Source: Obrimoposthia wandeli (Eukaryota). From it: 64,000 nt of DNA. The notes beneath the pieces are model-generated. The model ran no database searches and had not been told where the DNA came from. It saw nothing but the letters and a program-made list of their open reading frames with translations. Within the stretch, counting starts at the first letter, position 1, and each line of letters starts with the position of its first letter. The DNA is taken from the NCBI GenBank assembly GCA_977020255.1, contig CDROCS010000358.1:186001-250000 (forward strand). The letters are read 5' to 3'. Shown one piece after another: positions 14,061 through 58,000 of the stretch. The position numbers were made by a program, and so were the translations under genes.

Positions 14061-14068
14061 ATTTTAAC

Positions 14069-18200: not shown

Positions 18201-18479
18201 GAAGAAGTAAATGTAATAAATTCCAATGACACCGAATTAAATATTTTTACAATAATCAAGGCTCGATATGATGATAAAGTAATCACCGATCTTCAAAGCA
18301 AAGATACGGAATTACAACAAATAATTAAGTATATCACCATCAATCAAGTTCCAACAGATGAAAAATTAAGAAAACATTTAAAAAAAACTCATGAATCTCG
18401 CTATAAATTCAGTAACAATATTTTACATTATTTAAACGATAAAAATCTGTACTCACTAGTTATACCTAAAGAAATACAA

Positions 18480-19560: not shown

Positions 19561-19619
19561 ATAATTTGAGATCAAACACAAAAAATACAGTTTTACAAAT
19601 GTTACCAATACAAGATATA

Positions 19620-33154: not shown

Positions 33155-34338
33155 ATGAATATAATATGGAAATATTTAAAAGACCACAATTTAGAAATTG
33201 ATGTGTCGCATGTATCTCCATATGTAAAGTGCTCAATGTGTTCCTTAATTCTGAGACAGCCCATGGTGGCTGTTTGTGGTTGCGTGTTCTGTGACGAGTG
33301 CATCCACAAATATCTCGGGGAAGACTTGAAGCCGTGCCCAGGTTGTATCATGGATAACATCGCAACTGAAATAAGATACGACCGCGATATAGTGCAATGT
33401 AGGAAGTCCACGAGGGAAATAAACAAGCTTGTTGTCACTTGCCCGCACGATGGATGCGAAGAGAAATGCGAGTTGCTGCAGCTTATGGAGCACATTGTAT
33501 CTTGTCCTGTGACAAAGTTGGGCTGCATTTTCAGCAGCGTTGGATGTATGAGTGCGCAGTTTAATTCGCTGGAGCTGAATAAGCATCTGGATGAAGGAAG
33601 AATGGCGCATTATCGGATTATTGTCGAGACTCTGTGTCTGCTCAAGAACGGTTTCGAGTCCCTGCAGGCGGAGCGAGGAGACGAGTCTGTCATCAGAAAT
33701 GAGACGGATAAGCTGAAAGAAGACCACACAGAGTTGAGAGTTGCGTGTGTAGCGAGAGATAACGAATCCAAGGCGGCGATTGATGCGATTGTGGCGGATG
33801 TGGCGGCTCTGAGAGCGCAGAATGTGGAGACGAAGAAGAAATTAGAGCTGAGAGAGGCAGAAATGAAGAAGGATAAAGAAGAATTCTTGGGAGAAATTGA
33901 ACAGTTGCAGAAGAAAGTTGAGAGATTGAGAGAGGATAATGGGAAAATGAGTCAAACAATCAAAGAGAACAAAGATAATATCGATGGTGTGCGGAGGGAA
34001 ATGAAGGAAGATATAAAGAGGGTTGCAGAATCAAATTCTGAGGATAATACGAAATGGCAGACGAAGATTGACGAGAAGAAATCGGACTCAGAGAAAATGA
34101 GAAAGGAAATTGGCGAATTAAGAGCGACTCTGGTGACAAAGGCCGATATGAAAACGGCGCTCGATGAATATTCGCTAGAAGTGGCTCAATTGAAGAAGGA
34201 AATAGACCGAGTTAAAGTAATTATTCCCCTCGCTCTATTTATGACGCATTGCAGGAGGAAGTGGCGCAGCAGAAGAAAGATTCAGAGAAGGAGAGAGCGA
34301 TGACGACGAGTGGGGTGGAGAAGACAGCTGGAGCAGAG
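33155..34338 (+). CDS. RING / TRAF-type zinc finger / coiled-coil protein, paralog 2 (exons 33155-34216, 34255-34338; 3' end unresolved)
   Basis: CSMC...CGCVFCDEC...CPGC with the same spacing as paralog 1; 38-nt GT-AG intron at 34217-34254. Confidence 0.8.
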
Positions 34339-37710: not shown

Positions 37711-40681
37711 CTTAAAAGTGATTAAGGAAGACAACATGAATCCACATTGAGCTCATCGATTTATCTATGCGAAATTTTAGATAACTACATTTATGCTTGT
37801 TTGAAAGACATCTTATAACAGATTTTAGATGAATAAATTATTACATATTTTATGGCTGTTAGAAAGACAAAATATGTAGGTAAGATTTATATGTATTTTT
37901 AAGAGAAAAAACAACAAAATACATAACAAATATGAATTTATCAGAAAAATCAAACATAAAACAACATATTAGCTTCCCTCAAAATCCAAAGAGGCTGTAT
38001 TTTCCCATAATCAGCTGTTTTGTTTCCTCTTTGAAATCAGAAATAAAATAATATGAACATCACATTTATTTTCATTCATTAAAATAACATTATCATCATA
38101 ACTCACCGAAACAACTCCACACACAAACATTGTACTTTGATCTTTTTGTTTACTCTGAAATTGCGATAATGCATTGCAACTTGAAATTGATATTTGAACT
38201 TTGCCATTGTGAATTTAAAAATGCAATTGCATTATTTATACCATATTGGTATATTGTTTATTCTGAAACCGAAACTGCAGAAGTACGGTAATACATTTAA
38301 ACAAAATGTACCTCCGCAGTTTCTGCTTTATCTATTATTTTGAAATGCAATTTATATTTCAGCATCAGCCTAATATCCATTGAACCATATTGAAATATTC
38401 CATAGTTCTTCATCTAAAATTGGAACAATCAAATAGCTTAGGTAATCTCTTAAAGCCAGACTGACATCAGTTTCGAGCTGGAAAGAATTTACTTCGTATA
38501 TATAACTAGGTATGTAAAATTCCAAAATATCTTTCAATTTATCAATATCAGATGTTAAAATTTCGATTAAATATTTATTTTAGAATTTTGATATTTCCAC
38601 AGGATTCATAATTTGTACAATTTGATGCCTTTTTAATACAATAGTTCTGTACTACTGTTTGACTTCTTCAACTAAAGAATACATAGATTTAGTAAGTTTT
38701 TGTAATTTTTCCAATACATCTAGCATTAACATATCATTATTTTTTATTTCTTGGATTTTGAATATTTTAACCAAAAGAGCATGTAACCTACATAAATATT
38801 TTCCTTTCTTAAGACTTCAGATTCACTGTCCCAGGTTTGAGCCTGGGGCCACATATCACGCTCAGACCTTTTAGTCCTTGTTGCTACGCACCGGTGAAAG
38901 ACGAGATCTGTGTATCCCACACAAGTCATTGATGCCCTGGTCTGGAACTGGGTATTGTTGTCAACACTCACTCACCCAGTCTCCCCAAAGACACTTCCAC
39001 CTTGGATTGACAACCCAAACTGATCAAAACTCGAAACGGCCCATAAAGGTAAATAAAAGTAAACTAACTAAGAAATGTTTTATTACAAACGCATTTGGAT
39101 TTAAAAGATAGTTTTGGTAATTTTAATTTTCTATTTTTTCTACTTTTCTTTCAATCTAATTTCCACAAAAGTGTGTAGAAAGTCGATATACTCTGCCAGT
39201 TCCCCGGAGTTTGAGATTTATCATTCTGGAGGATGGAGGTGTATCTGAAATAGTCAATCTTCTTGTAAATAAATAACACCAGTTTATGTCACTAGAAATT
39301 TAGTCTGATGTTTACATCTGGCATAAATGTATTTAGATTGATGGGCCTATGTTACACCGAAATCCTAGCATTCAAATTCACTATCAAAGATTCCTATAAA
39401 ACATAACTGTGAATCTGTAGCGACACTGTGCTAAATCTGGCCAGGAAATAATTTAATTTCTGTTATATTTAGAGTCGATAAAGTGCAATAAGATAACTCC
39501 CATGATTGCTTTTTCTCCATTTCCAAAATGTTCAATATTGCTAACCCCTTTCTCACTTATTTCACATCCAATCATTACTCGTTCGTATTTTCCCCACGTT
39601 TTACTGAATTAGGTATCTCATAAACATATTTGCCTTTTTCTATATTGTCAGATCAGAATTTGCCAATCACTATTTGATTAATTGTTTCCATATTTAAGTA
39701 CCAATGAATTTTATTGCTTAAATACAATTAGTAGATCAACCTGATAGTATTCAATCTATTGTCAAATATAAATGAATTATAACTAGTAGTACGAAATTTA
39801 GGCATAATCTTTTTTCTGCATCTGATGTTACTTTGAGGCGGATGATCAGTGAAGGTGAAGAGTGTATTCTCCGAGAAATATGGGAAACCAATCAAATAAA
39901 GTCATCTATAAACGTTGCTATATTTAGTTTCACTAACCAAAGTAAGAAAAGAAAATTGTTTGTGAAACATTTTCCATTTCTTCGAAGTTCTAAGTTGCAT
40001 TTTTTGAAATACTAAAGTGATTCGATACATTTCGGAAATTGATATTTGTACCACTTCATTTCGCAAAAAACATATTTGCACACAAATTCTCCAGTTCAGC
40101 TTGACGTAGGACTAATTAAATGAAGGCTCACATAAGAGACCCACTAAGACGAGTATAACGAAGAGATTTATCGTAGACTTAGTCTTGATTAAGTTTCATT
40201 TCTCTCGTTGTGTGTCCGTGCAGCTGCTGAGAAAGACTAGAGGAGGGGGAATAAGCCCATAGCATTGTGTTCCCACATCCATTGTCCTTTTATATTTCTG
40301 ATAGAACTACTGGAATTAAAATTTACTAAAAAATATAAAAAAATGAAATATGACCTTTATTCTCGATCTCATTTGCAGTAGAATCTCGATTATTCGGGAG
40401 TAGGTGGATGTGTCCGGTCTAATCCACACCCCATCCCCCCTACTGTCCTTTAAAACCGTGCATGTGTGTGGAGTTAAATGTCGTGTAGGTGTGTAGAAAA
40501 AAGTTCTACCCCCCATCCCAAACACTCAAAAAAAAAAAAAAACTTAACTCCATTTAACACCCTGTAAATTTAAAAATCTCATAATGCTCCCAAAATTTTG
40601 ATTAAGGTCCTGAGAGGCCAAAAAATTGGCCAAAGCGTCCCCTACGGGCCCGCGGTGGATCAACGAGTAATAAATACAGGC

Positions 40682-40731
40682 TCGCGAAAATTTCTTTCGC
40701 GCCCTGAGAGCGCGAAAAATTATACGCGAAA
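40682..40731. promoter_or_regulatory. Cluster of four E2F-like sites
   Basis: TCGCGAAA, TTTCGCGC, GCGCGAAA and ACGCGAAA within 50 bp of otherwise CpG-poor DNA. Confidence 0.5.
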
Positions 40732-40911
40732 AAATTTTCCTTATAAAAATTTATATCCATACATATATACAAGGTCATAAAAAAAAAAATTCTTTATAAG
40801 AATTTATAAGAAAGATACATATATAGGGTCACAAAAAAATTTTAAATAATCAACTACATAAATTCGAAATAATTTGCATTTTTATTTGATGAGTCATCAA
40901 ATTAGTCATCA

Positions 40912-41038
40912 TGACCTTAAGTGATCTTGACCTCATGATGACCTAGACAACTTTGTACCCTTGACCTCATGATGACCTTAAATGACCTTGACCTCGTGAT
41001 GATGATGACCTCATAAGGTCATGACCTTAACTTGACCT
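40912..41038. repeat. Array of 11 TGACCT/AGGTCA motifs
   Basis: 10 TGACCT plus 1 AGGTCA counted, including the palindrome AGGTCATGACCT. Confidence 0.8.
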
Positions 41039-41228
41039 GAAATGAGCTCATGAATTTTTTATACCATCCAAACATGTACAGTCAAAAAAATATTACTATT
41101 TTAAATCCAAAGACATACATGTATTCAAATATTAACAAAATTTAAGAAAATAACATAAATTCTTTGAATAATACTTTTTCATTGGACGTTAAACTTATAC
41201 AACAAAATCTTAAGAAAATAGTTATATT

Positions 41229-41488
41229 TTTGAATAAAATATGTTTTATCCAATGACATTCCAGCATTCAAACATAGTTAAAAAATTGAGAAAAGCCTAC
41301 TGCTTTTCAAATAAATTATTTGAATAACCAGCCCTCATTGGACGACAAAAGTTTAGTGATATATTTTCGAATAAAATATGTTTTATCCAATGACATTCCA
41401 GCATTCCAGCATAGTTAAAAAAATTGAGAAAAGCCTACTGATTTTCAAAAAATTATTTGATTAACCCGCTCTCATTGGAGGACAAAAG
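41229..41488. repeat. Direct duplication of about 125-135 bp
   Basis: tttgaataaaatatgttttatccaatgacattccagcatt...ctcattgga.gacaaaag occurs twice. Confidence 0.75.
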
Positions 41489-41573
41489 AGGGTTAGTCTA
41501 TTATTTTTGTATATAAGGAAACCTCTTTTCATTATTTTTTCATAAATCAAATATCATTAATCAAGAAGCAAGA

Positions 41574-43671
41574 ATGCCAATCTACAACAACGTTGACCTA
41601 GACGAAGAGACGGAGGTTCAACTGTATTGAGATCTCTCTCCAGCACAGCAGCGAAAGCTACCACCGGCACAGTACATTGACTTACTTAGTCGGTGGTGAG
41701 TGAAGGAGACGAAGGAGAAGCAGCAGCAAGAGCCCAACTGTTGCTAGAAGAACCGCCATTGGCCAGCTCAACTCCAAGAGAAGAACCAATGAGCGTGGGA
41801 GGTGGGGTACAGAGATCCCAATATATCGATCTGACTAGTCAGGATTCGATAGAGAATTGGGAAGACTGTACTCCCAGGCTGAACACAGAAGCCAATCGTC
41901 CGGCAACTTCAGCAGTAGCAGCAAGGAGATCCAATCTCTTTGTCAATTTTGAGGCGGCAATCAAATGCCCCTGGAAATTGATCCCGCTGTCTCAACCGGA
42001 GATAATACTGGCACCAGACTCAGACGATGAGCTGTTTACTGATGACGTTCCGTCGGATGGGGAGGAGGAGTGGATACAGCCAAGTATCGGAGCCCCGGGA
42101 GCCAACGAGTCCATTGTTGCAGAAATGGATGAAGATGAGTGGGATCTGTTCACTGACGAATGGGATGGTCTCACTCCCTCTACAACTCCGACTCCGATAC
42201 CCAACAATACAGCGCCTGATCCATTCAGAAGGCCACAATCTCCGATACGTCCTGTTAGGAGAATAAAGGCGACGAATGAGGTTAGAAATCATTTATTTAA
42301 AATGTTTTTTAATTTTATTTTCAGAAACTGCAACTGGATTTGGCACCGTCAGTGACCACGATTGAGAGGCTAATTGAACCGCAATACTTGGCGAGTCAAT
42401 GTAGCCAGGATCATCCCAGGAGTGATCAGAGATACCTACCGACTCCGGCTAAAATTGAGGTATATTATTATAAATTAGTAAATTTATTTAATTATTCACT
42501 TAGGAAGCTGAGTTGGTGGAGGAAATTTGGGAGGAGGCATCTCGGAGACTACTTGTCGATAGGAAGCAAGCGGCAGTTAGGAAACCTCGACGTCATCGAA
42601 TCAAAACCAATACGGTCCATCGGAAGAAGGCCAAGTTGGTGAAACAGGTTAATCTGCCAGTCATCGAGGTAAATTATTTATATGTTTAAATTTTATTAAT
42701 GTTTTTTTGTTGCAGGAACCAATAACATTAACTGAGGAGACATGGGCCAAAATTTATCCTTTCCCGCATAAGCGAACGAGGCAGTGTGCTGTACGGAAGA
42801 CACGGCGTCTTAGAAAGGCAAAATCCTGTCTGCTCAATTCGAGTGAAGTAACGATTGAGCGGCAGGAAAAACTTCCGTATAAGATTATTGAGGTAATTTT
42901 TTGTTATTTTAAATATTTTTTTATTTAAATAAATTTTTTTTGAAATTTTATTTTTGTTTTCATTTGCAGGAACCTGTCCGGATAATTGAGGAGACTTGGG
43001 GAGAAGTTACTCCTTTCCCTAAGAAAAGGACAAAGCGGGCAGAGGTGAAGAAGACGAGGCGCGCGAGAAAAATTCGAACCTCAATTGGCCATTATTCTGA
43101 GGCGGTGATTGGCCAGCAGGAGATTTTCCCTCCTCCAATGGACAACGGGCCTATCTTATATGAGAGGATCCCAGTCTCGCCGATCGAGATAAGTCCGCAC
43201 TCGAGTTAACAACGCCTGCAGGAGACTGCTTCTCCTCGTCCAACAACCAGCCAAAACTTAAAGAGGGCCTGGGATGACGCTGGTTGGGACGAATTCCTGG
43301 CGGAACTGGATACACCGGTAATGCTTCCAGATTCGCGTGGGCAACAGGATGCCGTCTCACGCCAGCTTCAGCGTGAGAAGGAGGAGAAACAGAAGAAAGC
43401 TCCGCGGAAGAGGAAGGCTACTGCTTCTATGTCGGGGCCATCAACATCGGCTGCACCTCCTCCCAAAATGTTGCGGCAACTATTGCCAAAACCTGAGGGA
43501 AGGACAATTGCTGTACAGCAACCGGTGAAGCCGAAAAAGAAACCGGGCCGGCCAAAGAAGAAGGAACCAGTACCGCTTTCTCCTATCAAAATAAGTCGGA
43601 GGGAATATGACCCGGATGATCCCAATGAAGACTTCGTAAGGATTTTCAAAAATATAATTTATAAACATTAG
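41574..43671 (+). pseudogene. Multi-exon disordered Polinton accessory protein (acidic, repeat exons, AT-hook-like)
   Basis: Phase-0 GT-AG introns 42281-42324, 42460-42503, 42669-42715 and 42893-42969 keep the frame; premature TAA at 43207 with the same frame resuming; TATA-like gtatataagg near 41510; 5' end unresolved. Confidence 0.7.
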
Positions 43672-43714
43672 TTTCTTGTGTTGTCTTTTTATTATTATTT
43701 ATTTTAGAATTTAG

Positions 43715-43880
43715 TAATATTAAAATATACTACTTAAGTTTATTAAAATAACAAGGTTAAAAATAAATTTTATAATTTAATATTAAAATATACTACTTAA
43801 GTTTATTAAATAACAAGGTTAAAAATAAATTTTAGATTTTAGTAATATTAAAATATCCTCCTTAAGTTTATTAAAATAAA
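43715..43880. repeat. AT-rich tandem repeat, about 2.5 units of about 70 bp
   Basis: taatattaaaatatactacttaagtttattaaa repeated. Confidence 0.7.
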
Positions 43881-44129
43881 GTTAACTTATTCGAATGTGA
43901 TTGGATTGTTAAGGAATAATTAAATTTTTTAAGGATTAAATATAAATGCAATGATTAGTTATATATTTATTAAACTTTCATTTGATAAATATATTTTAAT
44001 TGCTTGTGATTGGATTAAAAATATCTTTAATTTATATATAGGTTCAAATTTATTAACATCTTCATAATTAAAAAAATGGAATTTATTAAATTGCAAAGTT
44101 TGGTGACGAAGATCGAGACAAACATAAGA

Positions 44130-44395
44130 ATAAATGAGAAGAAAGGAGACTTACAAAGAGGATCCTCAACCAGAATTTATATACTGCTGTCGCGACCGAG
44201 TGGAATAGTCGGGTGGAGATTCAGGACAGGCGGCTAGCAGAACGACGTCGGGTTGTGGAGTGGAACAAGAAAATCGAAATGGAAAAAAAGAAGGTGGAGG
44301 AAAAAATAAGAGAAGAGACGGAGGATGTTCGGCGAGCAGCAAGAAAGCGAATCCTCCAGATTAAACCGGAAGAGGGTCCTTCTACAAAAATATAA
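44130..44395 (+). pseudogene. Small charged coiled-coil ORF with a disrupted 5' end
   Basis: RRLTKRILNQNLYTAVATEWNSRVEIQDRRLAERRRVVEWNKK... Confidence 0.4.
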
Positions 44396-44527
44396 ATTTT
44401 TGATTATTATTTTGTCTTTATTGATTATGTTATAAAATTGTCTAAATACTACCTCGTCATTTTAATAAATTTTTGATTAATATTTTTTCGTTATAAACAA
44501 CGGAATTTTCTACAAATTTGGGTAATT

Positions 44528-45016
44528 ATGCAGGAATATATCATAGATTTTGAGGCTTTCATTAACAAAAATGGGGATTATATTATAAAAGAATTATGTA
44601 TTATGGATGTATGCGACGTTTTTCATCCTTTGCATTTCATATTTCATATAGATATCCCATTTAAAAGTTTAGATTATAAGAAAAAATTTACTAATTTATA
44701 TCTAACTAAATATTTCCATTTATTAAAATGGAAAGAAGGACATAAGGCTTTTTGTGAAATATGTATTTTCGATACTATTAAATCTAATTTTGAAATTGAA
44801 AATGGAATTTTTTATGTTTTAGATGACATGGATGGCAAAAAATATAAGACTTTAAAAAAATATTTTCCTAAATTGAGGTTGAATACTTTAAATATTTCAC
44901 GTGATCATCTATTAAATATTCCACAAAATATTTGCTGTCCATATCGTAATCATGGTGACCATTGCGCATATAAAAAATGTTTAAGTCTTTCTTATTATTA
45001 CTTGACATGTAGATAA
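44528..45016 (+). CDS. DEDD/DnaQ-like exonuclease-fold accessory protein, 162 aa
   Basis: N-terminal YIIDFEAF...IIKEL, H..W..G, C-terminal CP..H..HCA; intact ORF. Confidence 0.55.
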   Translation: MQEYIIDFEAFINKNGDYIIKELCIMDVCDVFHPLHFIFHIDIPFKSLDYKKKFTNLYLTKYFHLLKWKEGHKAFCEICIFDTIKSNFEIENGIFYVLDDMDGKKYKTLKKYFPKLRLNTLNISRDHLLNIPQNICCPYRNHGDHCAYKKCLSLSYYYLTCR

Positions 45017-45089
45017 ACAATTCTTCTAATTGGAGGAATTCATTATTAAAATTTTAGAGTTATTTACAAATCAGCCTTTTGATTGGAGG

Positions 45090-45260
45090 AATAAATTTTT
45101 TTTCAACCTATAATATATGAATAATCCTTCTCTTTAATTGAAGGAATAAAATTATTTTTTCAACCTATAATATATGAATAATCCTTCTCTTTAATTGAAG
45201 GAATAAAATTATTTTTTTCAACCAATAACAGATAAACAATCCTTCTCAGTTGAGGAATAA
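45090..45260. repeat. Tandem repeat of about 52 bp upstream of the polymerase gene
   Basis: aatccttctctttaattgaaggaataaaattatttttttcaacc repeated about 3 times; TATA-like tatataagca at 45311. Confidence 0.7.
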
Positions 45261-45486
45261 ATTCAATTTTTTAATCCAATAGGAAAAGAGCATGTGTGCA
45301 TAAATTTTAGTATATAAGCAAACACTTTCTTCATTTAAATCCCCGACAATTTGAAATAATGCCTATGGTAAGAATTTATTTTTATTATTTCCTTATTAAT
45401 ATTTATTATTTCTAATTACATCTAACCTATTCTCTGCGTATTGCGCTGCTTCGGCTCCGCATGGAGGAGAGTCCTGCATAGAGACA

Positions 45487-48400
45487 ATGTCTGCATACTA
45501 TCGGACAAAGTCTCAAGGTGTTCTGTTCTTCGTCTGCCCCTTCTGCAGAACAATGGAGGAGAAGGAGTTTCGAGAATTCTTCTGTGAACATCGAGCTCAC
45601 CTATCGTGTTTCACGGCGAACAACAAGAAGAGGGATATCGTCCAATTGGTGCGCGATTCGCAGGCCGCTCCAGCTCCACCTCCAATTACAGTGGCAGTCA
45701 GTCTACCAGTTTATGGTCCTGCCATTGGTCCTTCTCTCCGGGCTCCTGATTCTGCTGCTGCCCCATCCACTCAAATGTCTAACAATGAGTGGATGAACGA
45801 CATCTCCGAGGAAGATTTTGAGGAGTTGGCACCAGCAACCCAATTCTCAAACAATGACTGGATGCGAAATATCACCCAGTCAGATTTCGAGATGGAGCAG
45901 CCTCAGTGGAGCGATAACTCATGGTTGGAGACCATCGAGGAATCCGATTTCGTCGGGTCAACGGACGACAGCTTGGTGGATTCCATCAATGAAGAGGACT
46001 TCATTCCAGCTCAACTTGGATTGTCATCATTAGGTTTTTTTTTTTTTTTTATAAATTGTAATTATATATTTTATTTTTTAATATATATATTTTATTTATA
46101 TTAATTATTCAGGAAATACCGTTCTACAATCGTCATCTGCTACAACAGATATGCCTCCACCATCGCGAGTGCCTACATCGATGTTAGGACGCCTTAGAGG
46201 TAATAATTTTTAAAAATATATTTATTTTTTAATATATTTATTTCAGCAGCACTAACTTCTACAACAGCCGTTTCTTCATCGGAAAGGTCAGCGGTCCCTT
46301 CAACATCATCTACAGTTGCCTCAACATCGGCAGCATCAACAATAGCAGCAGCTTCCACATCAGCTGCAATTGTCTTAACATTGGCAGCATCACCAATAGC
46401 AGCACCTTCAACCTCAACTGCGATTGTCTCAACTATTAATATAAATAGTTGTCTTCCCGTTCAATTAGGGGGAGGTTTGTCAGCGACAAACGGAAGAAAG
46501 AGGCGAGGCCAATTTCTTAATAAGGTCCCACCCAAAAAACGTAGAGAAAACGGTGTTACTATAGAGTATCACCTAAATAATAAATATGTTATAGTTAAGG
46601 TGCCATTAGGAAATGAAATTTTATTAAACGTAGGTGTAGATTCAAATATTGAAAATCTTTTAAAATCAGAAGTGACTAAATTAGGACAGGCTAAGGTTCA
46701 ATTTTGCGCAACAGTGCAGTTTAAAAATGTCAATGAGGAAACTAAAACTTGGGTAATTTCACATAAAGCAACTGTTTTTTATGATAATTTTGTAACTGAA
46801 ATTGGAAGAAACCTGGATGAAAAAATTGCGAATATTAGCGAGTTAAGTAGTGGATGGACTCTAGTTAGAATTCACGATGGTAGCTTTGTTCTAACAAAGT
46901 TCACTGACATGATATATCTTTCGGGGAGTTCATACATTCCTTCACCTAGATCTCTTCAACTTTCACGTTCCATTTTTAACGTACAAAACAGTGATAACCT
47001 TTGCTTTCTGTATAGCGTGTTGGCCATCCTCAAAAGGGATGTAATTACTGAGCATAGAGAGCGTGTCAGTAAATATACCCCTTTTTTAAATGAATTGCAG
47101 TATCATGGAATAGATTTTCCTGTTAAATTAACTGCGATATCAAGATTTGAACATCTTAATAACTTGAGTATTAATGTATTCAAATATAATACTGATATCC
47201 CAGTTAATGTAACATATGAAGAAATTTTTAAAAATCCTTTTGTAGATGTAATTTATAGGAGCAAAAATGAGGGGACTCAGGTCAACTTAATTTTGCTCGA
47301 ACAGAATAATAAATTCCATTATGCTGCAATTCCCAGTTTAGATCGTCTTCTAAATTTAAATAATGGAGCCTTACCGAGCCATACTGAATTCTGCAGTTTA
47401 AGATTCATAGATTCTCTGCAGTTTTTGAGCGGGTCTTTAAAAAATTTAACGGCATCTTTAAATGCATGGCCAATTACACAGTCAGTGTTCCCAGCTTCGG
47501 TTAACGATAAGGGGATTTTTCCGTATAAATTTGCAAAAACTTTCGCAGATTTAGAAAATACAACTGAAATCCCACCCATAACTGAATTTGAGGGTGTAAG
47601 TCTTCAAGACTATAATGAGGCCCGTACATTTTGGGTGAATAATTGTCAAAATCTTCTCGAATATATGCTTTATTATATGAAGTTAGACATTTATCTTTTA
47701 GCTGATGTTTTTGAGTCCTTTCGTGTAAAGTCTTTAGCAGAAGATGGGCTAGATCCCATGCATTTCTTTAGTTTACCTGGTCTTTCATGGGCAACAGCAA
47801 TAAAAACTCTTAAAATTAATATCGAGTTACTGCAAGATCCTGCGATGTATCAAATGTATGATTATGGTATACGCGGTGGAATGACTTTTGTCAACAAACA
47901 TCATGTTGTCAAAAATCAATCCACGGAGATTCTGTACATTGATATTAATAATTTGTATGGGTGGGCGCTTACTCAACCTCTACCTCATGCCAACTTTAAG
48001 TGGGTTTATGATGTGGATCAGTTGAATAAGTTGATGACAGATTTGGCTACTGTTGATACAGTTTTATCCGACGTCGGTTATTTGGTTGAGGTGGACATAA
48101 AAATCCCTCCCAATGTGCATGATAAATTAGATGATCTTCCCGTAGCGCCTGTTCATCAATGCCCACCTAATTCAAAGGTTAAGAAATTATTGTTAACCCA
48201 TGAAGACAAGTTGAATTATGTTGTGCATTGGCGGCTTCTTCAATTCTACTTAAAGTTGGGAGCAAAAGTTACTCGAATTCATCGTGCTATAAGCTTCAGT
48301 CAAAACATTGTGTTTAAAGACTATTTTGAGAAGAATTCAAGAAAACGTAATTTGGCCACTAGCAAATTCGATCGAGATTTTTACAAGTTAAAAAGTAATA

Positions 48401-49162
48401 GTCTCTTTGGAAAAACTGTAGAGGACTTGCGGAAACGTATTTGTCTACGGTTTTGCAATGATGAGCGTAAACTAATAACATATACTAGCAAGTACAACTT
48501 CAAGCGTAGTTTTACAATTGCAGATGACTTGGTAGCAGTGGTATTAGGAAAACAGAGTATTTGTCTTAATCGACCGAGTTATATAGGTCAAACGGTTTTA
48601 GACATTTCTAAACTCAGAATGTATGAGCTTCAATACATAGAATTGGAGAAATACCGACAAGAATTTAATTGTGAGATTAAAATCGCAGCTGGGGACACTG
48701 ACTCTTTCTTTTTAGAATGTAGGAATGTTAGTTTAAATAATCAATTATTATCAGCAATGTTTAGAAACAACTTACTAGATACCCATAAATATCCCGCTAA
48801 CCATCCTCTACACTCTATGAGTTTAATAGGACATTATCGGGAAATTTAAGGATGAAAGCGAGGGACAGGTTTCGTATGATGATTGTATTTTCCTACGCCC
48901 TAAATGCTACAGTTTACATGCATCTAATAATACATGTTCAATGAGAGCAAAGGGTGTGGGAAGAAACAATCTTACACATGAGGCCTACCGGAAAGTTTAT
49001 GATACTGGGTATATTGAAAGCGTTGAGCAAACTAGATTTATTTCAAGAGCCCATCAACTGTATTCCCATAAATCAACCAAAATCGCGTTGAGTAGTAATG
49101 ACGACAAGCGCTTTTGGGTAGAAAAGAACGCTAGTCTGGCTTATGGACACTTCAGAATTTAA
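45487..49162 (+). pseudogene. polB: Protein-primed family B DNA polymerase, spliced to an N-terminal Cys/His domain (exons 45487-46033, 46113-46199, 46247-49162)
   Basis: YIDINNLYG, KLKSNSLFGK, GDTDS, DDKR, AYGH; frameshift near 48835 (GKFKDE...LRPKCY); apparent internal deletion before RFIDSLQFL. Confidence 0.9.
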
Positions 49163-49422
49163 ACGGTTTTCATTTTTTGATTTTTTTAGTTTAGTTTTTT
49201 AAAATTTTAGATCCTTATGGCACCTAGACTCTAACTCATTTGTTATTTCAATACTTTTTTAGGATGGACCTTATCTTTGCTGACATATCTCATTGTGATG
49301 TTGTGATTAATAAATGTATTAAAAAAATTGTCTTATGTCTTTTATTATTTTACCCTTATATTTTTAGAGATTTAAAAAATAATTCAAAATAAAACATTTA
49401 AATTTTTTATTTTTATAACACA

Positions 49423-49802
49423 CTAATCGTTTTGCAACGATAACCATAAAATACATAAATGTCCACAGTTTCTCGTCGCAGGATCCTGATATTGTATCTT
49501 GTTGTAAAATACTCTTCTTCGTCCTTTTTGAATAGTTGAAACAAGTTTGTGTGGATAATACATTGCAAGTGGATCAAATACATGTATTGTCCACTCTCTA
49601 ACATAAATAGCTATCTAATGTTCTCCTGGTAAATTTGAAGTATGAGTATTGCTAATGTATCCTCCAGATTGAAAAATGGAATCATATCAATAGGATAAAC
49701 TCCATTGAATTTATCACCCAGGACCTTCTCTGCTGATTCTTTTACTTGTTTTGAACTAAATAAAAATTAATAAATATAAATTTAAAATATGTCTTACTCC
49801 AT
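49423..49802 (-). pseudogene. Adenain-like cysteine maturation protease with a 5-nt first exon and 42-nt intron
   Basis: MDSKQV...GVYPID, NTHTSNLPGEH*IAI, HVFDP, QYQDPATRNCGHLCILWL; one frameshift and one TAG. Confidence 0.8.
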
Positions 49803-49803
49803 T

Positions 49804-51033
49804 CTATAATATGACAGTTCTGTTTTTATTGATTTGTATTTCCGAATCAAATACTCCGTAAATAAGCACCGTAGTAGGATTTGTTAAAGCTGCATTGAAC
49901 TTAATTTCTAGTCGTAAATTTCCATCCTTTGGTAGTTGGCATTGGTTTATATCAAAATCTGGTGCCAAAACAAATGTGAAGAACGGGCAGCTGTTTTTAA
50001 AGTCAGTGAAAGAAATACCATTGTTTATATTTTTATCTAGTTGACACAAATTTCGAATAATAGATTGGGTATAAACCAAAGCATAAGCGTCACCTTCGAA
50101 ATCTGTTTTATATGTTTCACGATAATCAGTATTTCTTGAAAGTGTCATTGAACCAACATTAAGATTGTCAAATTGAGTTGCATCTGTCGTATAATTTCCT
50201 AGAAACTTTGCAGTTTTTTGAAAAGAAATTAAAATGAATTTCGGTAATCTTACATCACCAAAAATTAGATCCTTATTAAAAGCTTGTGTACTCGTACCTA
50301 AAGAATAAGATATAAGTTTAGTTTCTCTAATAGAATAACAAGCATTGTTTTTTTCCATTCCTATATTATGTGCCATTAAAACTGATTGCTCGGTTTTAAC
50401 TCTTCGAACATACAATTTTGCATCCAAAATATCAAGTCTAGGTTTTAGAATGTCCGTGCTTATCAAAGAAAAATTCCATTTATTACGTTTCAAACGAAGA
50501 TGTACATTAACACCGGGAATTAAATATTTCGGTTGTTCAAAGAAATTCAATCTCAAAGACCCACACATTTCGTAAGCTTTAGAACCTGCAATCCATTCTT
50601 TGCGAGTTGCATCAGTTTTATCATAACCAATGGTTGCCAAATTAGTATTTTGAGTATCAGTACTATAATTCAAAAAACTTTCAATCAAAGCTTTATGAGC
50701 ATAGGAAGAATTTCCACCTTCAATTTTGACATTATTAAGAGTAACAATGGCATCATTAAATAAAGAATTAAAAAGATAATTTACAGGTGTTACTTCGGCA
50801 TTTTCATCTAAATTAGTACCATCCCGATTTAATACTTTTATTTGAACATAAAGCAAAGTATCATTCAAATCTAAATACTCGCTATTGGAACCAGTAATAT
50901 TAAATTCTAAATCGGTTAAAGTGGTTCCTGAAACTGAGTTAACAAGGAATATTTCTTCAAAGGAAGCATTATCTACAACTACTTGTGGAAGCGGTTAATC
51001 AAAAATACATAATTCAGTTTTGGCGGAACTCAT
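49804..51033 (-). pseudogene. Major capsid protein (double jelly-roll type), one premature stop at codon 13
   Basis: KTELCIFD*PLPQ, LEFNITG..EYLDLNDTLLYV, NYLFNSLF, KYLIPGVNVHLRLKRN, GNLRLEIKFNAAL..PTTVLIYG. Confidence 0.88.
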
Positions 51034-51407
51034 TTTGCAAATATTGTTCCTTCAACTTTCTTACGTTTGTTTATATTAATTTTTAGCATCTTTTTACTTT
51101 TAAATCCACTACCTCCTTGGCTTTTATTTGATTTACGTTTTCTAATCAAATTAGCAACTTCAGGTAAAACATTATCAAGTTCATCAAGCGCATGCTTCTT
51201 AAAAGTTGGTATTAGTTTATTGTCATTATATGAAAGGTAATCCTTTCCTAATTTTGATATAAATCGCCCGAGATTCTTTAAAAGAGGAAAGGCAAATCTA
51301 CCTAATGTTCTGAGCCAGCCAGATCCGTATTGTTTACCAACAAAATATGGTAATTCTCCACCTTGTTGACTTTGACTATAAGCTTCAATTATTGCTGGAT
51401 TCGCCAT
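51030..51407 (-). CDS. Conserved Polinton small core-like protein with QxGxG motifs
   Basis: YSQSQQGGELPYFVGKQYGSGWLRTLGRFAFPLLK, QGGSG, basic C-terminus; stop overlaps the capsid ATG (ATGA). Confidence 0.75.
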   Translation of the reverse strand: MANPAIIEAYSQSQQGGELPYFVGKQYGSGWLRTLGRFAFPLLKNLGRFISKLGKDYLSYNDNKLIPTFKKHALDELDNVLPEVANLIRKRKSNKSQGGSGFKSKKMLKININKRKKVEGTIFAK

Positions 51408-52270
51408 TTAATTTTTTCTTAAATGTATTGTTAAACTTGTCTTGGCCCCGTACGTGAAATCTAATAGTTGTCCGGAATCATCTCTAATATTTACTTCAAT
51501 ATTGTTTATAGAAAAGAGAGAAACTGGAAGATACATTGGTTGATCTATACACATACCGACAGTGTCCCCATCTCTAGTTTCATTTTTAGATATCCATATT
51601 GTTCTCAAAAGTGGAACTCGCTGTCCTCCTACAAGCGTTGGTTCTATTAAATTAGTATAAATATATAAATGATTAATAACATTTAAAAGTTTTGCCTTAT
51701 TTTTAGCTTTTATGGTTTTTATTGTATGGGTTTCAAAGGTATTTCTGTTTAAACCAAGGTTTTTAGCGAGTTTATCATCAAATGAAACTCATTTTATATT
51801 GCTCTTTACTGTAAACGTTAATTTACCATTTAATGTTTCACATTTATCCAAATATTCACTACATTCCTTCTGTATTAATTTACAGAAATTCACTTCACTA
51901 TCTATTTTATAATCTTTTGAAAACGTTTTCAGTTCCACTACAGTCTTTGTTTTCGTTTCAAGTAACAACACTTTTGCTACTCTACCAGGAACATTTCTAA
52001 CCGAATTAGATGAGATAATACCCCGTTTATTACGAGCTACTGTTTGTTCACTATCAAAACTGAATTGAAGAGCTTATTTTTTAGATTCAAAATTAATTTT
52101 AATAACTTGAAGAAATTTTAATCGATTTTTAAATCTGACTTTGTTATTTTCAAATATTACTTTCACTTCTTTATTTATACAATTGTAATAGAATTGTCCT
52201 TTACTATCAAACCCGATCACAACTTCAGTTGATTTTTCATGATCTTTTGTAAACGAAATATGTGAGTTTT
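51408..52270 (-). pseudogene. Minor capsid (penton) protein, 5' truncated, with internal stops
   Basis: LYIYTNLIEPTLVGGQRVPLLR, QPMYLPV, IEVNIRDDSGQLLDF. Confidence 0.8.
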
Positions 52271-52941
52271 TTTTTTTTTTTTCGTTTTTCTTATATTTAG
52301 CTTTTTTAATTTTTTCTTTTTTATTCCTGTTCATCCAAATGTCCATAGAGTTTTTATTAGTAACATCAACAGGTCTCATTCCCTTGAGACCTCTATATTC
52401 AGAGTGATTATATGCATGTATTATTTTAGGTAAAACTTGGATCCATTTTTTATTTCCTTCTTTTGTGAAATACCTTTTTATTCGATCTCTTAGAGTACGA
52501 TTAAATCTTTCTACTACTGCTGCTTTGTATTGTGAAAACACAGAGTAATGATTTATATTATTTTGTTTAAATAATGATTGAACTTGCTTATTATAAAATT
52601 ATTTTCCTTAATCAGTTTGCACATTTTGTGGAATGTCCTCTTTTAATATTTCTTTAATGGCTTCAAGCATAGCTATTGAAGACTTTGCTTTAACTGGAAT
52701 TGCACGAGCAAACCTGCTAAATACATCAATACATGTTAAAATATATCGATATCCCTTATTAATGGAAGGTTTTGTAAGCTCTAGTTGGAAACCTTCTTCT
52801 CATCGGCTTGTTCAGACTGTAGGCTAACTGGTCGCTCAGCCATTTCTGCGTTTTCTTGTAATTTTGTTTTGTTCTTTTTGCTAATTGTGAAACTCCTGTG
52901 TAGCCAATTGGATCTTTTGGATTGAACCATATCTTCTCCAT
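52270..52941 (-). pseudogene. Polinton retroviral-like integrase
   Basis: MEKIWFNPKDP, GYRYILTCIDVFSRFA, VQTD*GK*FYN, KAAVVERFNRTLR, YNHS; deletion and frameshift remove the first catalytic Asp region. Confidence 0.88.
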
Positions 52942-53063
52942 TACAACAATTTGAATAGAAAGAAAATTTAAGTTTAGGTAAAAAAGGGCTAGCACCCATA
53001 TCTTTAGCTGATTTTAGAAATAATTGTTTATGAACGTGTCGCAGCTATAGTACTACTGATAAT

Positions 53064-53357
53064 TTAAGCAACAACTGGAATAACAGCCCCTATGAAACCA
53101 CCATTCTGTTTAAGAATAATATTTCGTTTCCTTTTTTTACTTTTTACATTAGCAATATCTAGAAGAGTTTTTCTATATTTCTTTAATATATTTTTCCGAT
53201 TTCCAACTTTTACGCGACCCAAAACTATATTATACAAAACTTTCAATAAATCATCTACAACAAAGGATGGAAATACTTTAAGAATAATCATTCTCTTATT
53301 AGAAGAGGCTTTGACTAAAGCTTTAAAATAGGGTATGCTTCTTTGTATTTTCTTCAT
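53064..53357 (-). CDS. Conserved Polinton small protein ending in QxGGF-hydrophobic
   Basis: LLKVLYNIVLGRV...KRNIILKQNGGFIGAVIPVVA. Confidence 0.7.
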   Translation of the reverse strand: MKKIQRSIPYFKALVKASSNKRMIILKVFPSFVVDDLLKVLYNIVLGRVKVGNRKNILKKYRKTLLDIANVKSKKRKRNIILKQNGGFIGAVIPVVA

Positions 53358-53372
53358 TTTAATAAAAAAGGT

Positions 53373-53528
53373 TCAATTTAAATATTGTTTATATTCGAAG
53401 CCATTTAAGTTTTTTTTATTTTTAACTACAGATTTGATTAATTTTTTCACTTCTTTTTTCTTAATGATTCTTTTTTTTGATTTCTTAGATTTTACTTTAC
53501 GTTTTACTATCAACTTTGTAAAAGGCAT
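53373..53528 (-). CDS. 51-aa lysine-rich protein (not in the ORF track)
   Basis: MPFTKLIVKRKVKSKKSKKRIIKKKEVKKLIKSVVKNKKNLNGFEYKQYLN, packed between the ATPase and the next gene. Confidence 0.55.
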   Translation of the reverse strand: MPFTKLIVKRKVKSKKSKKRIIKKKEVKKLIKSVVKNKKNLNGFEYKQYLN

Positions 53529-53535
53529 TGCGAAT

Positions 53536-54183
53536 TTATTTTTTATAATTGTTCTCTATTTGTTTATAAACAGTTACTCCCTTAGAATTAAATATGTCTG
53601 TTAAAACACGTAAATCATCTGGGCAAGCTTGTGTAAAGTTAATAAATATATACCCATGTGCTTGTTTAGCAGCATCGTGGAATGAATCAACTAGAAAGTT
53701 CTTATTTTGAGGAAATGCCTGTCTGGCCACAAAATCAACAACTGTTTGATCTCTAGGATTTTTAAATAAAACTAAGTAATGTACATTAAGGTTTCTAGTT
53801 CTATGGTGACCTCCTTGGTGAAACAGATTTTGAGTGATAAATATAACTGTAACTTCACGATGTCTTGCAATCTTTGTAAATAAATTATTAAAGTCCGATT
53901 CCTTGTTAGCCTCCTCATACAAATCATCAATTATTATTACATCTTCTTTTTTCAATCTTTCACACCAATTTGCATCAAATCCTTCAATAAATTTTATACC
54001 CTTCAACTTGCAAACTTCTGTTTTGGTTAACCCGCTTTCCCCTTCTCCACCATGATGCCAATAAATATTTTTGAAACTAGATTTGAAAAGAGATTCATTT
54101 TGCAACAATTTACAGACGAAATGTGTCTTTCCACTTCCACTTGGGCCAACTATTTGAAATACAGCATTATTATTTAGCTCCAT
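53536..54183 (-). CDS. Packaging ATPase (FtsK/HerA, A32-like)
   Basis: Walker A GPSGSGKT, Walker B IIIDD, FTKIARH, ITQNLF, VLFKNPRD. Confidence 0.92.
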   Translation of the reverse strand: MELNNNAVFQIVGPSGSGKTHFVCKLLQNESLFKSSFKNIYWHHGGEGESGLTKTEVCKLKGIKFIEGFDANWCERLKKEDVIIIDDLYEEANKESDFNNLFTKIARHREVTVIFITQNLFHQGGHHRTRNLNVHYLVLFKNPRDQTVVDFVARQAFPQNKNFLVDSFHDAAKQAHGYIFINFTQACPDDLRVLTDIFNSKGVTVYKQIENNYKK

Positions 54184-54220
54184 TGCATATACTCTTTCAT
54201 TTTTAATATTGTTTATATTA

Positions 54221-54502
54221 TCATAGAAGTTTCCTTATTGAAATGTACAATGTTAGAGCTATTGTAGATGAAATACAAAAATTAATTAATGAATATTTGG
54301 CTATAATTTTATTTATTTGTGTACGATTTCTAAATTCTCGAATAACGTGTGATCTAACCAATATTTCAATGTTATCTCTTGTTATATCATTATTTTTTAA
54401 TTCTGATAAAATTTCTTTACCCCTAATTTTTCCAGAAAATATTTCATTGGCAAGCCGATCCACTTCATTGTATCTATTTATAGTATTATTCATTTGAAAC
54501 AA
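54221..54502 (-). CDS. Small protein with a C-terminal hydrophobic segment, unknown function
   Basis: Intact ORF between the TBP-like gene and the ATPase; tail YSLINFCISSTIALTLYISI. Confidence 0.45.
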   Translation of the reverse strand: MFQMNNTINRYNEVDRLANEIFSGKIRGKEILSELKNNDITRDNIEILVRSHVIREFRNRTQINKIIAKYSLINFCISSTIALTLYISIRKLL

Positions 54503-55024
54503 TAAGTTTAAACGGGGTTTGTTTATAGAAAAAAGATAACAAGATGTAATAAGATATATTTTCTAAAATCAAATCAACTATGTCTGGATAGTCAAAATTT
54601 TTCAATCCCAATATCATAACTTTACCACTGGAAAATATATTTACACATAGCGGTTTAAACTTCAAATAACTGAGAGCAGGAAAAATTTCTGGTTCAAACA
54701 TGCATTCTTCTTTCATTTTCTCAGCAGTTTTAAAAAGATTTATCTGTTTCCCGAGATTAGCCGAAATCGTGATTGATTGTATTGCAGTGATTTGAATTCC
54801 AAATGGTAAATTGAACCCAAGCATTGGTATTTTGCATCCCATAACACGACAATTTCCTAAAGAATTCAATATGAAAATAAAATAAAAAACTAACCTGTAG
54901 GAAAAATAACATCTGTGAAATTGTCAAACTTTTCTACATATTGTCTCGGCTTCCATTCATTGAATGGTAAGTACGAAACATCATCTTCTGTTCTACCTTT
55001 ATAATTTATATTTACGAGTTTCAT
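54486..55024 (-). CDS. TATA-binding-protein-like protein (exons 55024-54895 and 54856-54486; 38-nt intron)
   Basis: Spliced product has two TBP-like repeats: MKLVNI...VIFPTGNCRVMGCK and IQSITISANLG..INL...FEPEIFPALSY...NIFSSGKVMILGLK. Confidence 0.8.
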
Positions 55025-58000
55025 TAGACTGAAATTGTATTCTGTAAAATCTTCTTTATATGTCTGAACCTGCTTTTTTATTGCACGTTTCTTGTAATTA
55101 TCTTGCAAACCTATTATAATTGGATGATATATTTCTTCCAATCAATTTTGATTTTTAATATAGATTTAGTCCAATCAAATTCAATGCTTTAGTTATATTA
55201 ACCAATGAGATTCATGTCTTTGTTAGAAATTAGTATAAAAGAATGCGCCATTGGAGGACAAATCACAGTAAATGCATTCATATCAAAGACAATTATCAAC
55301 AATGGATGATAGCCAACGGGTATTAAGCAATATTTGAAAACTCGTCTGCGAAAATCCGTCGGGGTCAATATGGATTCTCGTGGTCTTCTCTAACCACTTT
55401 TGAGATTCATGGTAAAAGTTTAACAAATATGGTGGGGGGGTACCCCTTCCTCCCCCCCCTTTGGGTGGAATGGAGACACACATACACGAAATTTCACTCC
55501 ACACACTTACACGAAATTTCACTCCACACACCTACACGGTTTAAAAGGACAATGGGGGGAGGGGGGGTGTGGATTAGACCGGACACATCCACCTTTTTTC
55601 GGGTCAAGGGAGGAGGGATTTAGTCCCACAATTGAATATAATAGGGGCATAAAAGTAAAACAAAGATTTACACAAATAATAAATGTATTAACTGAACATG
55701 TTTGTATTCTCGTATCACAGTGCAATTCTAGAGGATGTTGAAATAATATTTACCTACTGATATTTGGGTGTTACGAGCATTGGGAAGTGGGCATTTGACA
55801 GTAACCTTCAATTTTGTATTCTGACAACGCAGTTTTATGTAATTTTATCTTTTGCGTGTTTATCAATATTTTATAATGTTCATATATTGATTCTGATTGT
55901 GTATTGATATCTGACATTTTACTGCACTTCCCGTTGTTTTTATTGAGAAATGGCAATTTCGACTGGATTTTGAGATAATCCCTACTTTAAGCTTCTAATG
56001 ACTTCATTGGTCTTCAACGTATTTCATGCGAAAATAATCTCAACAACTCATTTATCCCATATACACACACAAATGAGAGATACGCACAGATGTATAAAAT
56101 GTTCCATATTTGCATAGCCTCTTTCAAACTAACATATTGGCCTATTGGTATTTATTGCCATTGGACTGTCAACAAAGGCACGCCATTCGAATGGATGATG
56201 GTCAAAATCGATGGCTTGGAAATGACCTTTTATTTTTCATCAACTCTAAAGTAATGTGAAAACAACAAATGTTTCTTTCGGTAGCTGCATATTTTAAAGC
56301 TTGAGTAAATTCCACGCATTCTTACCTAATGTGATAAGTTCTGCCTTTGACTGTCGTCGTCTAGGTCTTCAGGAGAGGTCTCATTTTCTTGCCCTGAGAT
56401 GGGACAGCTATTGACAATTCACCACAATTTGGCGGCACTGGTACACTGTAGGATGTACTACTTGGATATGTTACATTGTTCCGATTTTAAACACTTTCAT
56501 ATTTGGCAAATTATCCTTATTGTCTCTATACATTGACACATTCAAAGCAACCGTACATGATTAATAAATAGGAAAATACATATTTCACAGAAATTGAAAG
56601 TCGTAAAACTAGAGTGACTCTTTTAGGAAATATGAAACTAATCTTCGAATGATAAGTTTGTTTCAACTGGTAGCAAATTAAATTCTTAGGAATTAACGAG
56701 ACCTATAAACTTTATTTCTTGGTTTCTCAAATTTCACTTCTGGCCATTCTTTCCACGTCTCATTTTGTAGATATTTCTAACTTCATTAAAATTGAAATAA
56801 ATACTCAGATCTATCCTTGTTTTATACATATACATTTTAAGCTATTTATATTTTCTTTTTTGCGCAGCTATTTTTGATTTCAATTCCTTGGCTTATCTCA
56901 GATTAGTTTGAAGCAGAATGCGTTTAGTAGCTGATTAAAGCTCCTAAAAGAACTGAAATTCAATGATGAAAGGGGGAATGCGGAAAAGAAAGGTATAATC
57001 AAAATATAATCTGAAATCATTTTTTCTGATATAAGAAAGATTCAATAAAATGAATACTTAGGAAAACATTTGTCAAATTACGTTTAGTCTTTTATACAGT
57101 TTGGATACAGTGACGTCTGATGGTGCCCACAGAACATCCTAAACGCGAATTGTTCTCGCAATATACGATGCGTACTTCTTCTTCCATTATCGGTCTTTTG
57201 AACATTTTGATTTTATATGGCTGAGATTCCGTGTTTTGAAAGATTATTCACTATGACAAACTGCCATTTGATCGCTAATCTAAAGTTGCATCCTTCTCTT
57301 TTAGTTGATTCCTTATATTTCGTCAACATTAAAACATTTATGCGACTTAAACGCGCCACTACTATCTCTGAAATTGATATTCCTCGCCTCCGCATTCCTT
57401 TCTTCATCTACAAGATTATTTATGCTGTTCTGAAGATTCTGTATCCGTATTTGATTAAATTAATTGTGATAAACATCCAGGCTTCAAACACTTGAGACCA
57501 TATGTCATATTTTGTTTGATTATGCCTCCTTGACCAAGACTTCGTTATCAGGTTGAATTTCTGCAAAATAATACGTTTTTCCTATCTGGAATTGGTGGGA
57601 TTTGATGGTTTAAGGAAAAATCTTTTATTTTCCTGAAACTTGAAACATTAGCAATCAGACGATTCGACTCTATTTCTTCCATGGTCCTCATCGTTACTTT
57701 GTCCGGTAACTACTTGATTTCATATTAAGATATATCCATTTGTGTGAGGTTAATTTTAGAGGTGCAGCAGTTAGAGAAATTCAATTTACAAAGCCAAAAT
57801 AAAATATTAACCTTCAAACGTAGAAATCAAAATCAAAATTTATTTCAAATTTATGAATTATTAAAACCAAATAATAAATCTCATTTTTGTCGAAAAATAT
57901 TTTTATAATGAAATTTTAATGATCTTTGTTCTCACGACCCGAAGAATTTTGCTTGCCGACTCATTTACTTTCGAACCATTTTGATTTCTAATATCCACAT

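Follow-up and report, generated by a model that had tools for sequence, protein, structure and literature searches.

Intact vertebrate Mavericks, or Polintons, are described as carrying eight intronless open reading frames (ORFs), in agreement with Kapitonov and Jurka 2006, and their intactness is scored by such ORFs (PMC8097293). Nematode Mavericks have intronless core genes and carry introns in host-derived cargo (bioRxiv 10.1101/2022.07.12.499685). A survey of endogenous DNA viruses assumes intron-free elements and employs prokaryotic ORF callers (PMC10120064), and introns are likewise left unconsidered in bioRxiv 10.1101/2025.04.19.649669. Spliceosomal introns occur as introners in integrated dinoflagellate Maverick/Polinton-like viruses (PMC11957031), the group I introns of protist Polinton-like viruses are of a different kind (PMC12220804), and adenovirus pTP, IVa2 and 33K are annotated as spliced (PMC8781740, PMC7851563). 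In a planarian, RNAi against smedwi-2 of the piRNA pathway releases Polintons from repression (PMC8532177). In the present work, we analyze a Polinton and the nine short introns predicted in four of its genes; it lies in a stretch of 64,000 nucleotides (nt) of the Obrimoposthia wandeli genome (contig CDROCS010000358.1, positions 186,001 to 250,000), hereafter called the window.

The element spans 40399-55597 of the window (15.2 kb), and its gene set and termini identify it as a Polinton: it shares with vertebrate Mavericks/Polintons the terminal inverted repeats (TIRs), a 6-bp target-site duplication, the pPolB polymerase, an rve integrase, a packaging ATPase, an adenain-like protease and capsid genes. 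It differs from them (PMC8097293) in its split protease and polymerase leader and in carrying a gene for a protein resembling the TATA-binding protein (TBP-like). A GC-richer, poorly conserved, intron-containing region near one TIR, here the left-arm gene, recalls nematode Mavericks; the latter bear introns in cargo, whereas those predicted in the window element include introns of core genes, at positions shared between families. As in the dinoflagellate viruses, spliceosomal introns are predicted inside an integrated element; those are mobile introner copies, whereas the present ones are fixed, tiny and inherited, with no sequence shared across families as far as can be seen without an introner search. 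Adenoviruses are related nuclear viruses that use host splicing, as is predicted here. Their splicing joins distant exons of long transcription units and their protease coding sequence is listed as one ORF, whereas the window element has a split protease and cell-like introns of 38-79 nt, in genes with apparent TATA-type motifs of their own.

The statement of the initial annotation that Polinton core genes are usually described as intronless agrees with three sources (PMC8097293, bioRxiv 10.1101/2022.07.12.499685, PMC10120064). Term look-ups for spliceosomal introns in Polinton genes returned nothing from 10.1101/2023.08.22.554363, PMC8502044, 10.64898/2026.07.28.741278 and PMC4405056. More generally, the mostly open-access papers covered by our literature search do not describe inherited spliceosomal introns for the core genes of animal Polintons; some Polinton entries in Repbase may already have annotated exons. 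On its predicted gene structures, the element is a member of the Polinton family departing from the printed trait of intronless core genes, a trait that is reported and not definitional. It had been called an intron-rich Polinton; the term applies to four genes predicted to be split, and the core genes among them are just two, the protease and, in its N-terminal leader, the polymerase.

Nine predicted introns and their positions across families

The initial annotation proposed eight frame-preserving GT-AG introns of 44, 44, 47 and 77 nt in the left-arm gene, 79 and 47 nt in pPolB, 42 nt in the protease and 38 nt in the TBP-like gene. All eight segments are present at these sizes, six on the + strand and two on the - strand, with GT..YAG ends. 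Their removal restores the frame, which is the only sense in which they are frame-preserving since seven of the eight lengths are not multiples of 3. A ninth segment of 47 nt, I0 at 45368-45414, was added in pPolB; it had been overlooked because its acceptor is broken in the window copy. We consider it highly probable that the nine segments are short U2-type introns, inherited through replication of the element and probably removed by the host spliceosome from what are likely RNA polymerase II (Pol II) transcripts. Each has a GT donor and a YAG acceptor and restores a homologous frame, the broken I0 acceptor of the window copy being the only exception. The phase is 0 for the left-arm introns I1-I4, 1 for I5 and I6 of the polymerase, 2 for the protease and 1 for the TBP-like gene.

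Several properties of the segments taken as a set are consistent with this reading. The GC content of the eight is 5-16%, against 28-52% in their 60-nt flanks. AT-richness alone is not diagnostic, as 41574-55024 holds 39 AT islands of which nine are introns; in the GC-richer coding blocks 41574-43640 and 45359-47400, all seven AT islands are introns. When each intron was shuffled, GT..AG ends recurred at P 0.0002-0.003, a weak measure as the boundaries had been chosen for GT/AG. TTAAT lies 16-20 nt from the 3' end in five of the six introns examined, a motif frequent in AT-rich sequence anyway and assessed without a control. In 29 close sister copies, picked by similarity, 94-99% identical and decaying, every donor and every acceptor is conserved in 27-29 of the copies. 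The lengths of I4 and I5 change freely among these sisters, whereas left-arm exons 2-4 are fixed at 135, 165 and 177 nt (28-29 copies).

The most informative comparisons come from more distant relatives. At least three other families of Polintons are present in the same genome, namely A (L133-L138), B (L139-L144) and D (L147-L148, L153-L164), in which the capsid stop overlaps the protease start (ATGA). The protease of the window copy is organized as follows:

49423..49755, - strand: protease exon 2, adenain-like; frameshift and stop in the window copy
49756..49797, - strand: predicted phase-2 intron I7 of 42 nt, following the fifth coding nt of the protease; 25/29 sisters match
49798..49802, - strand: protease first exon, coding part of 5 nt, 1 nt behind the capsid stop codon

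The protein falls with Peptidase_C5-containing clusters at high confidence and gives weak PF00770 matches. The 5-nt first exon proposed earlier thus designates the five coding nucleotides only, the exon also including the 5' untranslated region. Families A and B carry a different 38-nt GT-AG segment at the I7 position (5/5 copies read), family D a segment of 39-40 nt there, with GT in 9 of the 11 matched copies among 12, and metagenome contig L084 one of 39 nt; in L090 a donor stands at this position, at the contig end. In the more distant contigs L086, L088, L094, L095 and L100, the protease is continuous from its ATG. Capsid identity between the intron-bearing protease lineages is about 57%, and a capsid tree of 11 rows, rooted at midpoint, groups the six intron-bearing elements into one clade with support of 92/94, just under the starred threshold. 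These comparisons indicate that the predicted protease intron is older than the window family. Four copies that seemed intron-free proved to carry local deletions that took the donor and exon bases along, not precise losses.

An intron accounts for these segments better than a frameshift or a coding insertion because four lengths, falling into three classes modulo 3, occur within one flanking frame. The spliced protease model places 19 residues before the G-V-Y-P motif, compared with 17-20 in 31 of the 57 motif-bearing homologs (151 homologs in total). The prediction that ORF callers would truncate such products agrees with the database entries: the N-termini of homologs P0009, P0011 and P0012 look like read-through into such an intron, and P0008, P0010 and P0013 begin at an internal Met.

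The TBP-like gene has the second intron whose position recurs outside the window family:

54489..54856, - strand: TBP-like exon 2 (PF00352, E 5e-12 to 7e-12)
54857..54894, - strand: predicted phase-1 intron I8 of 38 nt, splitting the Gly codon of the first TBP-repeat motif; GT 19/19, AG 18/19, length 35-40
54895..55024, - strand: TBP-like exon 1, 130 coding nt, collinear with the N-termini of single-ORF homologs

In alignments to six single-ORF homologs, the split Gly is the one residue that separates exon 1 from exon 2. A 40-nt GT-AG segment of different sequence occupies the same codon, in the same phase as I8, in L090. The site is continuous in families A, B and D and in 27 of 63 metagenome or viral loci, 35 of the 63 lacking the motif. 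The TBP-like and ATPase trees leave the position of the window family unsettled; the shared intron may reflect one gain with losses, two gains at a favorable AG|G site, or module exchange. Intron loss, suggested by an open frame of at most 292 residues upstream of exon 2, was ruled out, since 19/19 copies hold the segment. The GT..AG stretches between the divergent polymerase and TBP-like starts of families A, B and D were not counted as no upstream exon is evident.

Position is therefore kept, while length and sequence diverge, for the protease and TBP-like introns across families, which is how spliceosomal introns behave; GT/AG boundaries kept both in sisters and across families provide the conservation between copies that the initial annotation had named as a check. 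Two rival explanations can be weighed here. The segments might be AT-rich insertions, introner-like or random, acquired after integration and dispensable for the active element. The introners of integrated dinoflagellate Maverick/Polinton-like viruses are mostly post-integration (PMC11957031), and every copy inspected is decayed; the segments are nevertheless fixed across the copies examined and would hence predate amplification, and a single protease position is shared by lineages with about 57% capsid identity from independent samples. We regard such insertions as very improbable, the cross-family position having apparently largely refuted them already. Alternatively, the products could be made without splicing, through internal starts or frameshifting, the GT/AG ends being coincidental. 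Exon 2 of both the protease and the TBP-like gene offers an internal Met, and some database homologs are called from one. Segments of 38, 39, 40 and 42 nt at one site cannot, however, share one frameshift, internal starts would drop a conserved N-terminus of 23 (protease) or about 48 (TBP-like) residues, and no Met occurs in the first 220 residues of pPolB exon 4, where a conserved block lies; this is the least probable explanation that we considered. Spliceosomal introns remain our preferred reading for both genes.

Left-arm gene and polymerase leader

Left-arm and polymerase introns match in position across two subfamilies only, those of the window family. The left-arm gene comprises the following features:

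41574..43671, + strand: left-arm gene, five exons; in the window copy, exon 1 carries stops as well as a frameshift, and exon 5 carries a stop
42281..42324, + strand: predicted intron I1, 44 nt, phase 0; GT 29/29, AG 29/29 sisters; in 27/30 subfamily-2 copies
42460..42503, + strand: predicted intron I2, 44 nt, phase 0; GT 28/29, AG 29/29 sisters
42669..42715, + strand: predicted intron I3, 47 nt, phase 0; GT 28/29, AG 29/29 sisters
42893..42969, + strand: predicted intron I4, 77 nt, phase 0; GT and AG 29/29 sisters; length 71-79

This gene, which the initial annotation labeled a regulator, has no Pfam match and no homolog in families A, B and D or in the metagenome loci. Its internal exons measure 135, 165 and 177 nt. 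Exon 4 is 46% identical to the start of exon 5 (E 6e-18), exons 3, 4 and 5 (42504-43206) are tandem paralogs with 46% and 32% identity, and the sequences of I2-I4 resemble one another in this tandem context. Subfamily 2 (77-88% identical) keeps the boundaries, with three introns of 44, 38 and 41 nt and modal exon lengths that are multiples of 3. Its I2 has 38 nt and an altered sequence (11 of the 12 pattern-matched copies among 30), its I3 has 41 nt in 30/30 copies and joins straight to the last exon, and one exon-intron unit is lacking. The number of predicted left-arm introns changes by exon duplication, and I4 was likely made by tandem duplication of an exon-intron unit. Two further candidates in this gene were rejected: 43636-43671 covers its last codons and 41696 is a small deletion in the window copy.

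According to a third rival explanation, only the protease and TBP-like introns, and probably those of the polymerase, are real, and the left-arm segments are AT-rich spacers between small ORFs or a decayed repeat. The gene has neither a homolog outside the family nor a Pfam match, and exons 1-4 are all open and multiples of 3 in only 11 of 30 rows. Yet I1-I4 are all in phase 0 with GAG|GT and YAG ends, exons 2-4 are devoid of Met, 28-29 of the 29 sisters have exon lengths divisible by 3, and the boundaries persist in subfamily 2, where the intron sequences differ. We judge this explanation improbable, although less so than the two preceding ones, and retain introns for the left arm as well.

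The polymerase gene is interrupted in its leader:

45359..45367, + strand: pPolB first coding exon, 9 nt
45368..45414, + strand: predicted intron I0, 47 nt, phase 0; GT 29/29, AG 27/29 sisters; acceptor broken in the window copy
45415..46033, + strand: pPolB exon 2, a Cys/His-rich block followed by a low-complexity linker
46034..46112, + strand: predicted intron I5, 79 nt, phase 1; GT 27/28, AG 28/28 sisters holding I5 (of 29); length 58-84
46113..46199, + strand: pPolB exon 3, 87 nt; 87 nt in 27/29 sisters
46200..46246, + strand: predicted intron I6, 47 nt, phase 1; GT 28/28, AG 27/28; 43-49 nt in ten full copies
46247..49162, + strand: pPolB exon 4, in which no introns were seen; the window copy lacks ~700 bp near 47378 and has a frame break near 48840

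The first coding exon is three codons long, as is the first exon of adenovirus pol/pTP. Exon 4 contains no Met before residue 221, and the 220 preceding residues include a conserved block. In families A, B and D, the homologs of exons 2 and 4 share one ORF (E 1e-7 to 3e-9 and 2e-24 to 9e-43, respectively); together with the Met-less start of exon 4, this arrangement argues that the exons encode one protein. The three leader introns are specific to the window family, and two of them lie within a low-complexity expansion. The window ORF, with about 700 bp deleted, has no Pfam or PDB match; its 54% homolog in L084 matches PF03175 (E 7e-23). The window ORF does carry polymerase-type motifs.

Several observations weigh against accepting all nine segments. 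Conservation among close sisters is weak evidence because similarity was the basis on which these copies were chosen and because I1-I4 show no more substitutions per site (0.006-0.024) than exons do (0.018-0.038). I0-I6 have no position match outside the two subfamilies, and the polymerase leader of families A, B and D is uninterrupted. Of the 12 matched subfamily-2 copies, 5 have an exon 2 whose length is not divisible by 3; the query copy itself has a deletion there. Internal Met codons exist in exon 2 of the protease (residue 24) and of the TBP-like gene (residue 5), and the TBP-like tree, which is itself poorly resolved, does not group the window family with L090 as sisters. With regard to the host, 8 of 31 junctions in its myosin and chaperonin genes could not be resolved, and the element introns are more AT-rich (5-16% GC) than those of the host (16-51%).

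Candidate promoter motifs, predicted splicing and host introns

Short TATA-type motifs precede several genes of the element. TATAAACA occurs 10 times against 2.2 expected (shuffle mean; maximum 6 in 200 shuffles) and stands 34-42 nt before the start codons of six genes:

44492, + strand; 54527, 54217, 53568, 53393, 51510 and 51075, - strand: TATAAACA

Orthologous genes of families A, B and D and of L084, L090 and L094 are likewise preceded by this motif; the left-arm and polymerase genes have TATATAAG in its place. TATAAACA possibly represents gene-by-gene promoters, perhaps read by the TBP-like protein of the element. TATAAAC, found 144-149 nt upstream of the protease start in four families and absent from L084 and L090, is a candidate promoter for the protease. 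As the five coding nucleotides of the protease first exon directly follow the capsid stop, the protease transcript would start inside the capsid gene or be polycistronic.

A plausible course of events can be proposed from these motifs and gene structures. Host Pol II would likely transcribe integrated or nuclear copies, with TATA-type motifs serving as promoters gene by gene, and the introns would likely be excised by the U2 spliceosome of the host. The protease intron would be the oldest, those of the polymerase leader and left arm being family-specific gains and I4 arising by tandem duplication. Without splicing, the protease reading frame ends at codon 3 and that of the TBP-like gene at its donor, and retention of the protease intron yields a two-residue product in all six lineages seen; given these stops and the Met-less exon 4 of pPolB, the lineage would need the spliceosome for its maturation protease and full-length polymerase. 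A bolder proposal, which we hold to be unlikely at present, is that an invertebrate polintovirus clade is obligately splicing-dependent, that the old protease intron has been kept as a gate or booster of expression, and that the TBP-like protein of the element reads the TATAAACA promoters. If true, this clade would offer a stepwise, still-visible model for the reliance of the adenovirus lineage on splicing, as well as a model for introns shielding invading DNA from host silencing.

An intron-bearing clade would be scored as broken or truncated, with the N-termini of protease and polymerase mis-called. Conserved introns argue for nuclear transcription by host machinery and for a protease gene under selection, a point relevant to possible virion formation by animal Polintons. 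A genome in which orthologs with and without introns stand side by side would constitute a compact system for dating intron gain; a cross-family protease intron beside intron-free orthologs is unusually clean evidence, even though the window copy is dead.

Host introns were predicted in myosin and chaperonin genes, where 23 of the 31 junctions were resolved computationally (two of them identical). The shortest measure 44, 46, 46, 50, 58 and 61 nt, and four candidates of 40-41 nt were found by pattern only; the element introns sit at the lower edge of the host size range. The host segment at 34217 with which sizes were matched earlier (34217-34254, 38 nt, GT..CAG, open frames on both sides) is present, has 42% GC and is itself only predicted; the host introns of 44-50 nt support the comparison of sizes. 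Adaptation of the element to the spliceosome of this particular host, claimed in addition, does not follow, since the protease intron appears to predate the family and introns of equal size occur in relatives from other samples.

The element, its copies and its surroundings

The termini of the element and its genes without predicted introns are listed below:

40393..40398, no strand: left target-site duplication, 6 bp; same hexamer at 55598-55603
40399..40440, + strand: left TIR, outer part; inverted-repeat match 92%
55556..55597, - strand: right TIR, outer part; terminal bases degenerate
49804..51033, - strand: major capsid protein gene, without intron; premature stop near the 5' end in the window copy
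51030..52073, - strand: two genes (PZ-like and minor capsid), placed by synteny; no Pfam match, no intron seen
52074..53013, - strand: rve integrase, in which no intron was seen; the window copy has frameshifts and lacks ~470 bp near 52277
53536..54234, - strand: A32-type packaging ATPase ORF (PF04665, E 1.3e-6), without intron

The TIR arms measure 39 nt, are 92% complementary and lie 15.1 kb apart, with further matching blocks. The capsid genes, ATPase, integrase and polymerase body show no introns. The major capsid protein matches a double jelly-roll cluster with a very high score, its recognition value being under the threshold of the tool. PZ-like and minor capsid are putative labels, the latter assigned by synteny only. 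The integrase gene is fragmented in the window copy, and the PF00665 match (E 6e-4) concerns a 63-residue fragment and falls below the curated cut-off.

In the 1.35-Gb genome, the best 40 of 4561 candidates match the polymerase region at 98-100%. The element belongs to a Polinton family of high copy number and is itself decayed. Compared with ten sisters, the window copy has lost about 700 bp in the polymerase and about 470 bp in the integrase, and stops, frameshifts or deletions affect its left-arm gene, polymerase, protease, major capsid gene and integrase. A search for relatives in viral contigs returned none by single-protein scans and one distant locus by an alignment scan.

A compact two-repeat TBP-like gene of about 150-165 residues is a regular part of this Polinton group (L070-L114), and many metagenome contigs have it beside an ATPase, integrase, capsid or protease gene; its counterpart in families A, B and D is intron-free and lies head to head with the polymerase. 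In L084, the region upstream of this gene holds an opposite-strand ORF with a putative resemblance to a ubiquitin-conjugating enzyme, and the same contig has two minor-capsid-like segments. In L070, L072, L076, L081 and L085, the gene upstream of the TBP-like gene contains a 43-46-nt phase-0 GT-AG segment at one conserved position, with further GT-AG segments downstream in L072 and L076. A literature search on Polintons and the TATA-binding protein, judged by the titles listed, yielded nothing on this gene; a TBP label appears in a figure legend of PMC8502044.

Elsewhere in the window, two tandem RING/TRAF-zinc-finger coiled-coil genes lie at 27213-28355 and 33098-34303, the second holding the predicted intron at 34217. 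The genome also contains many intron-free chaperonin-like matches of near-identical length in ORFs of about 550 residues, beside intron-containing host genes; these matches are perhaps carried by a repeat. Finally, a Gypsy-type retrotransposon, whose kind would suggest a triclad-like host, occupies 12221-20927, with an inverted partial copy at about 5100-8800. It encodes a Monjiviricetes-type fusion glycoprotein between its upstream ORF and the protease/reverse transcriptase/integrase region, a layout shared by the planarian Burro elements (PMC6431247).

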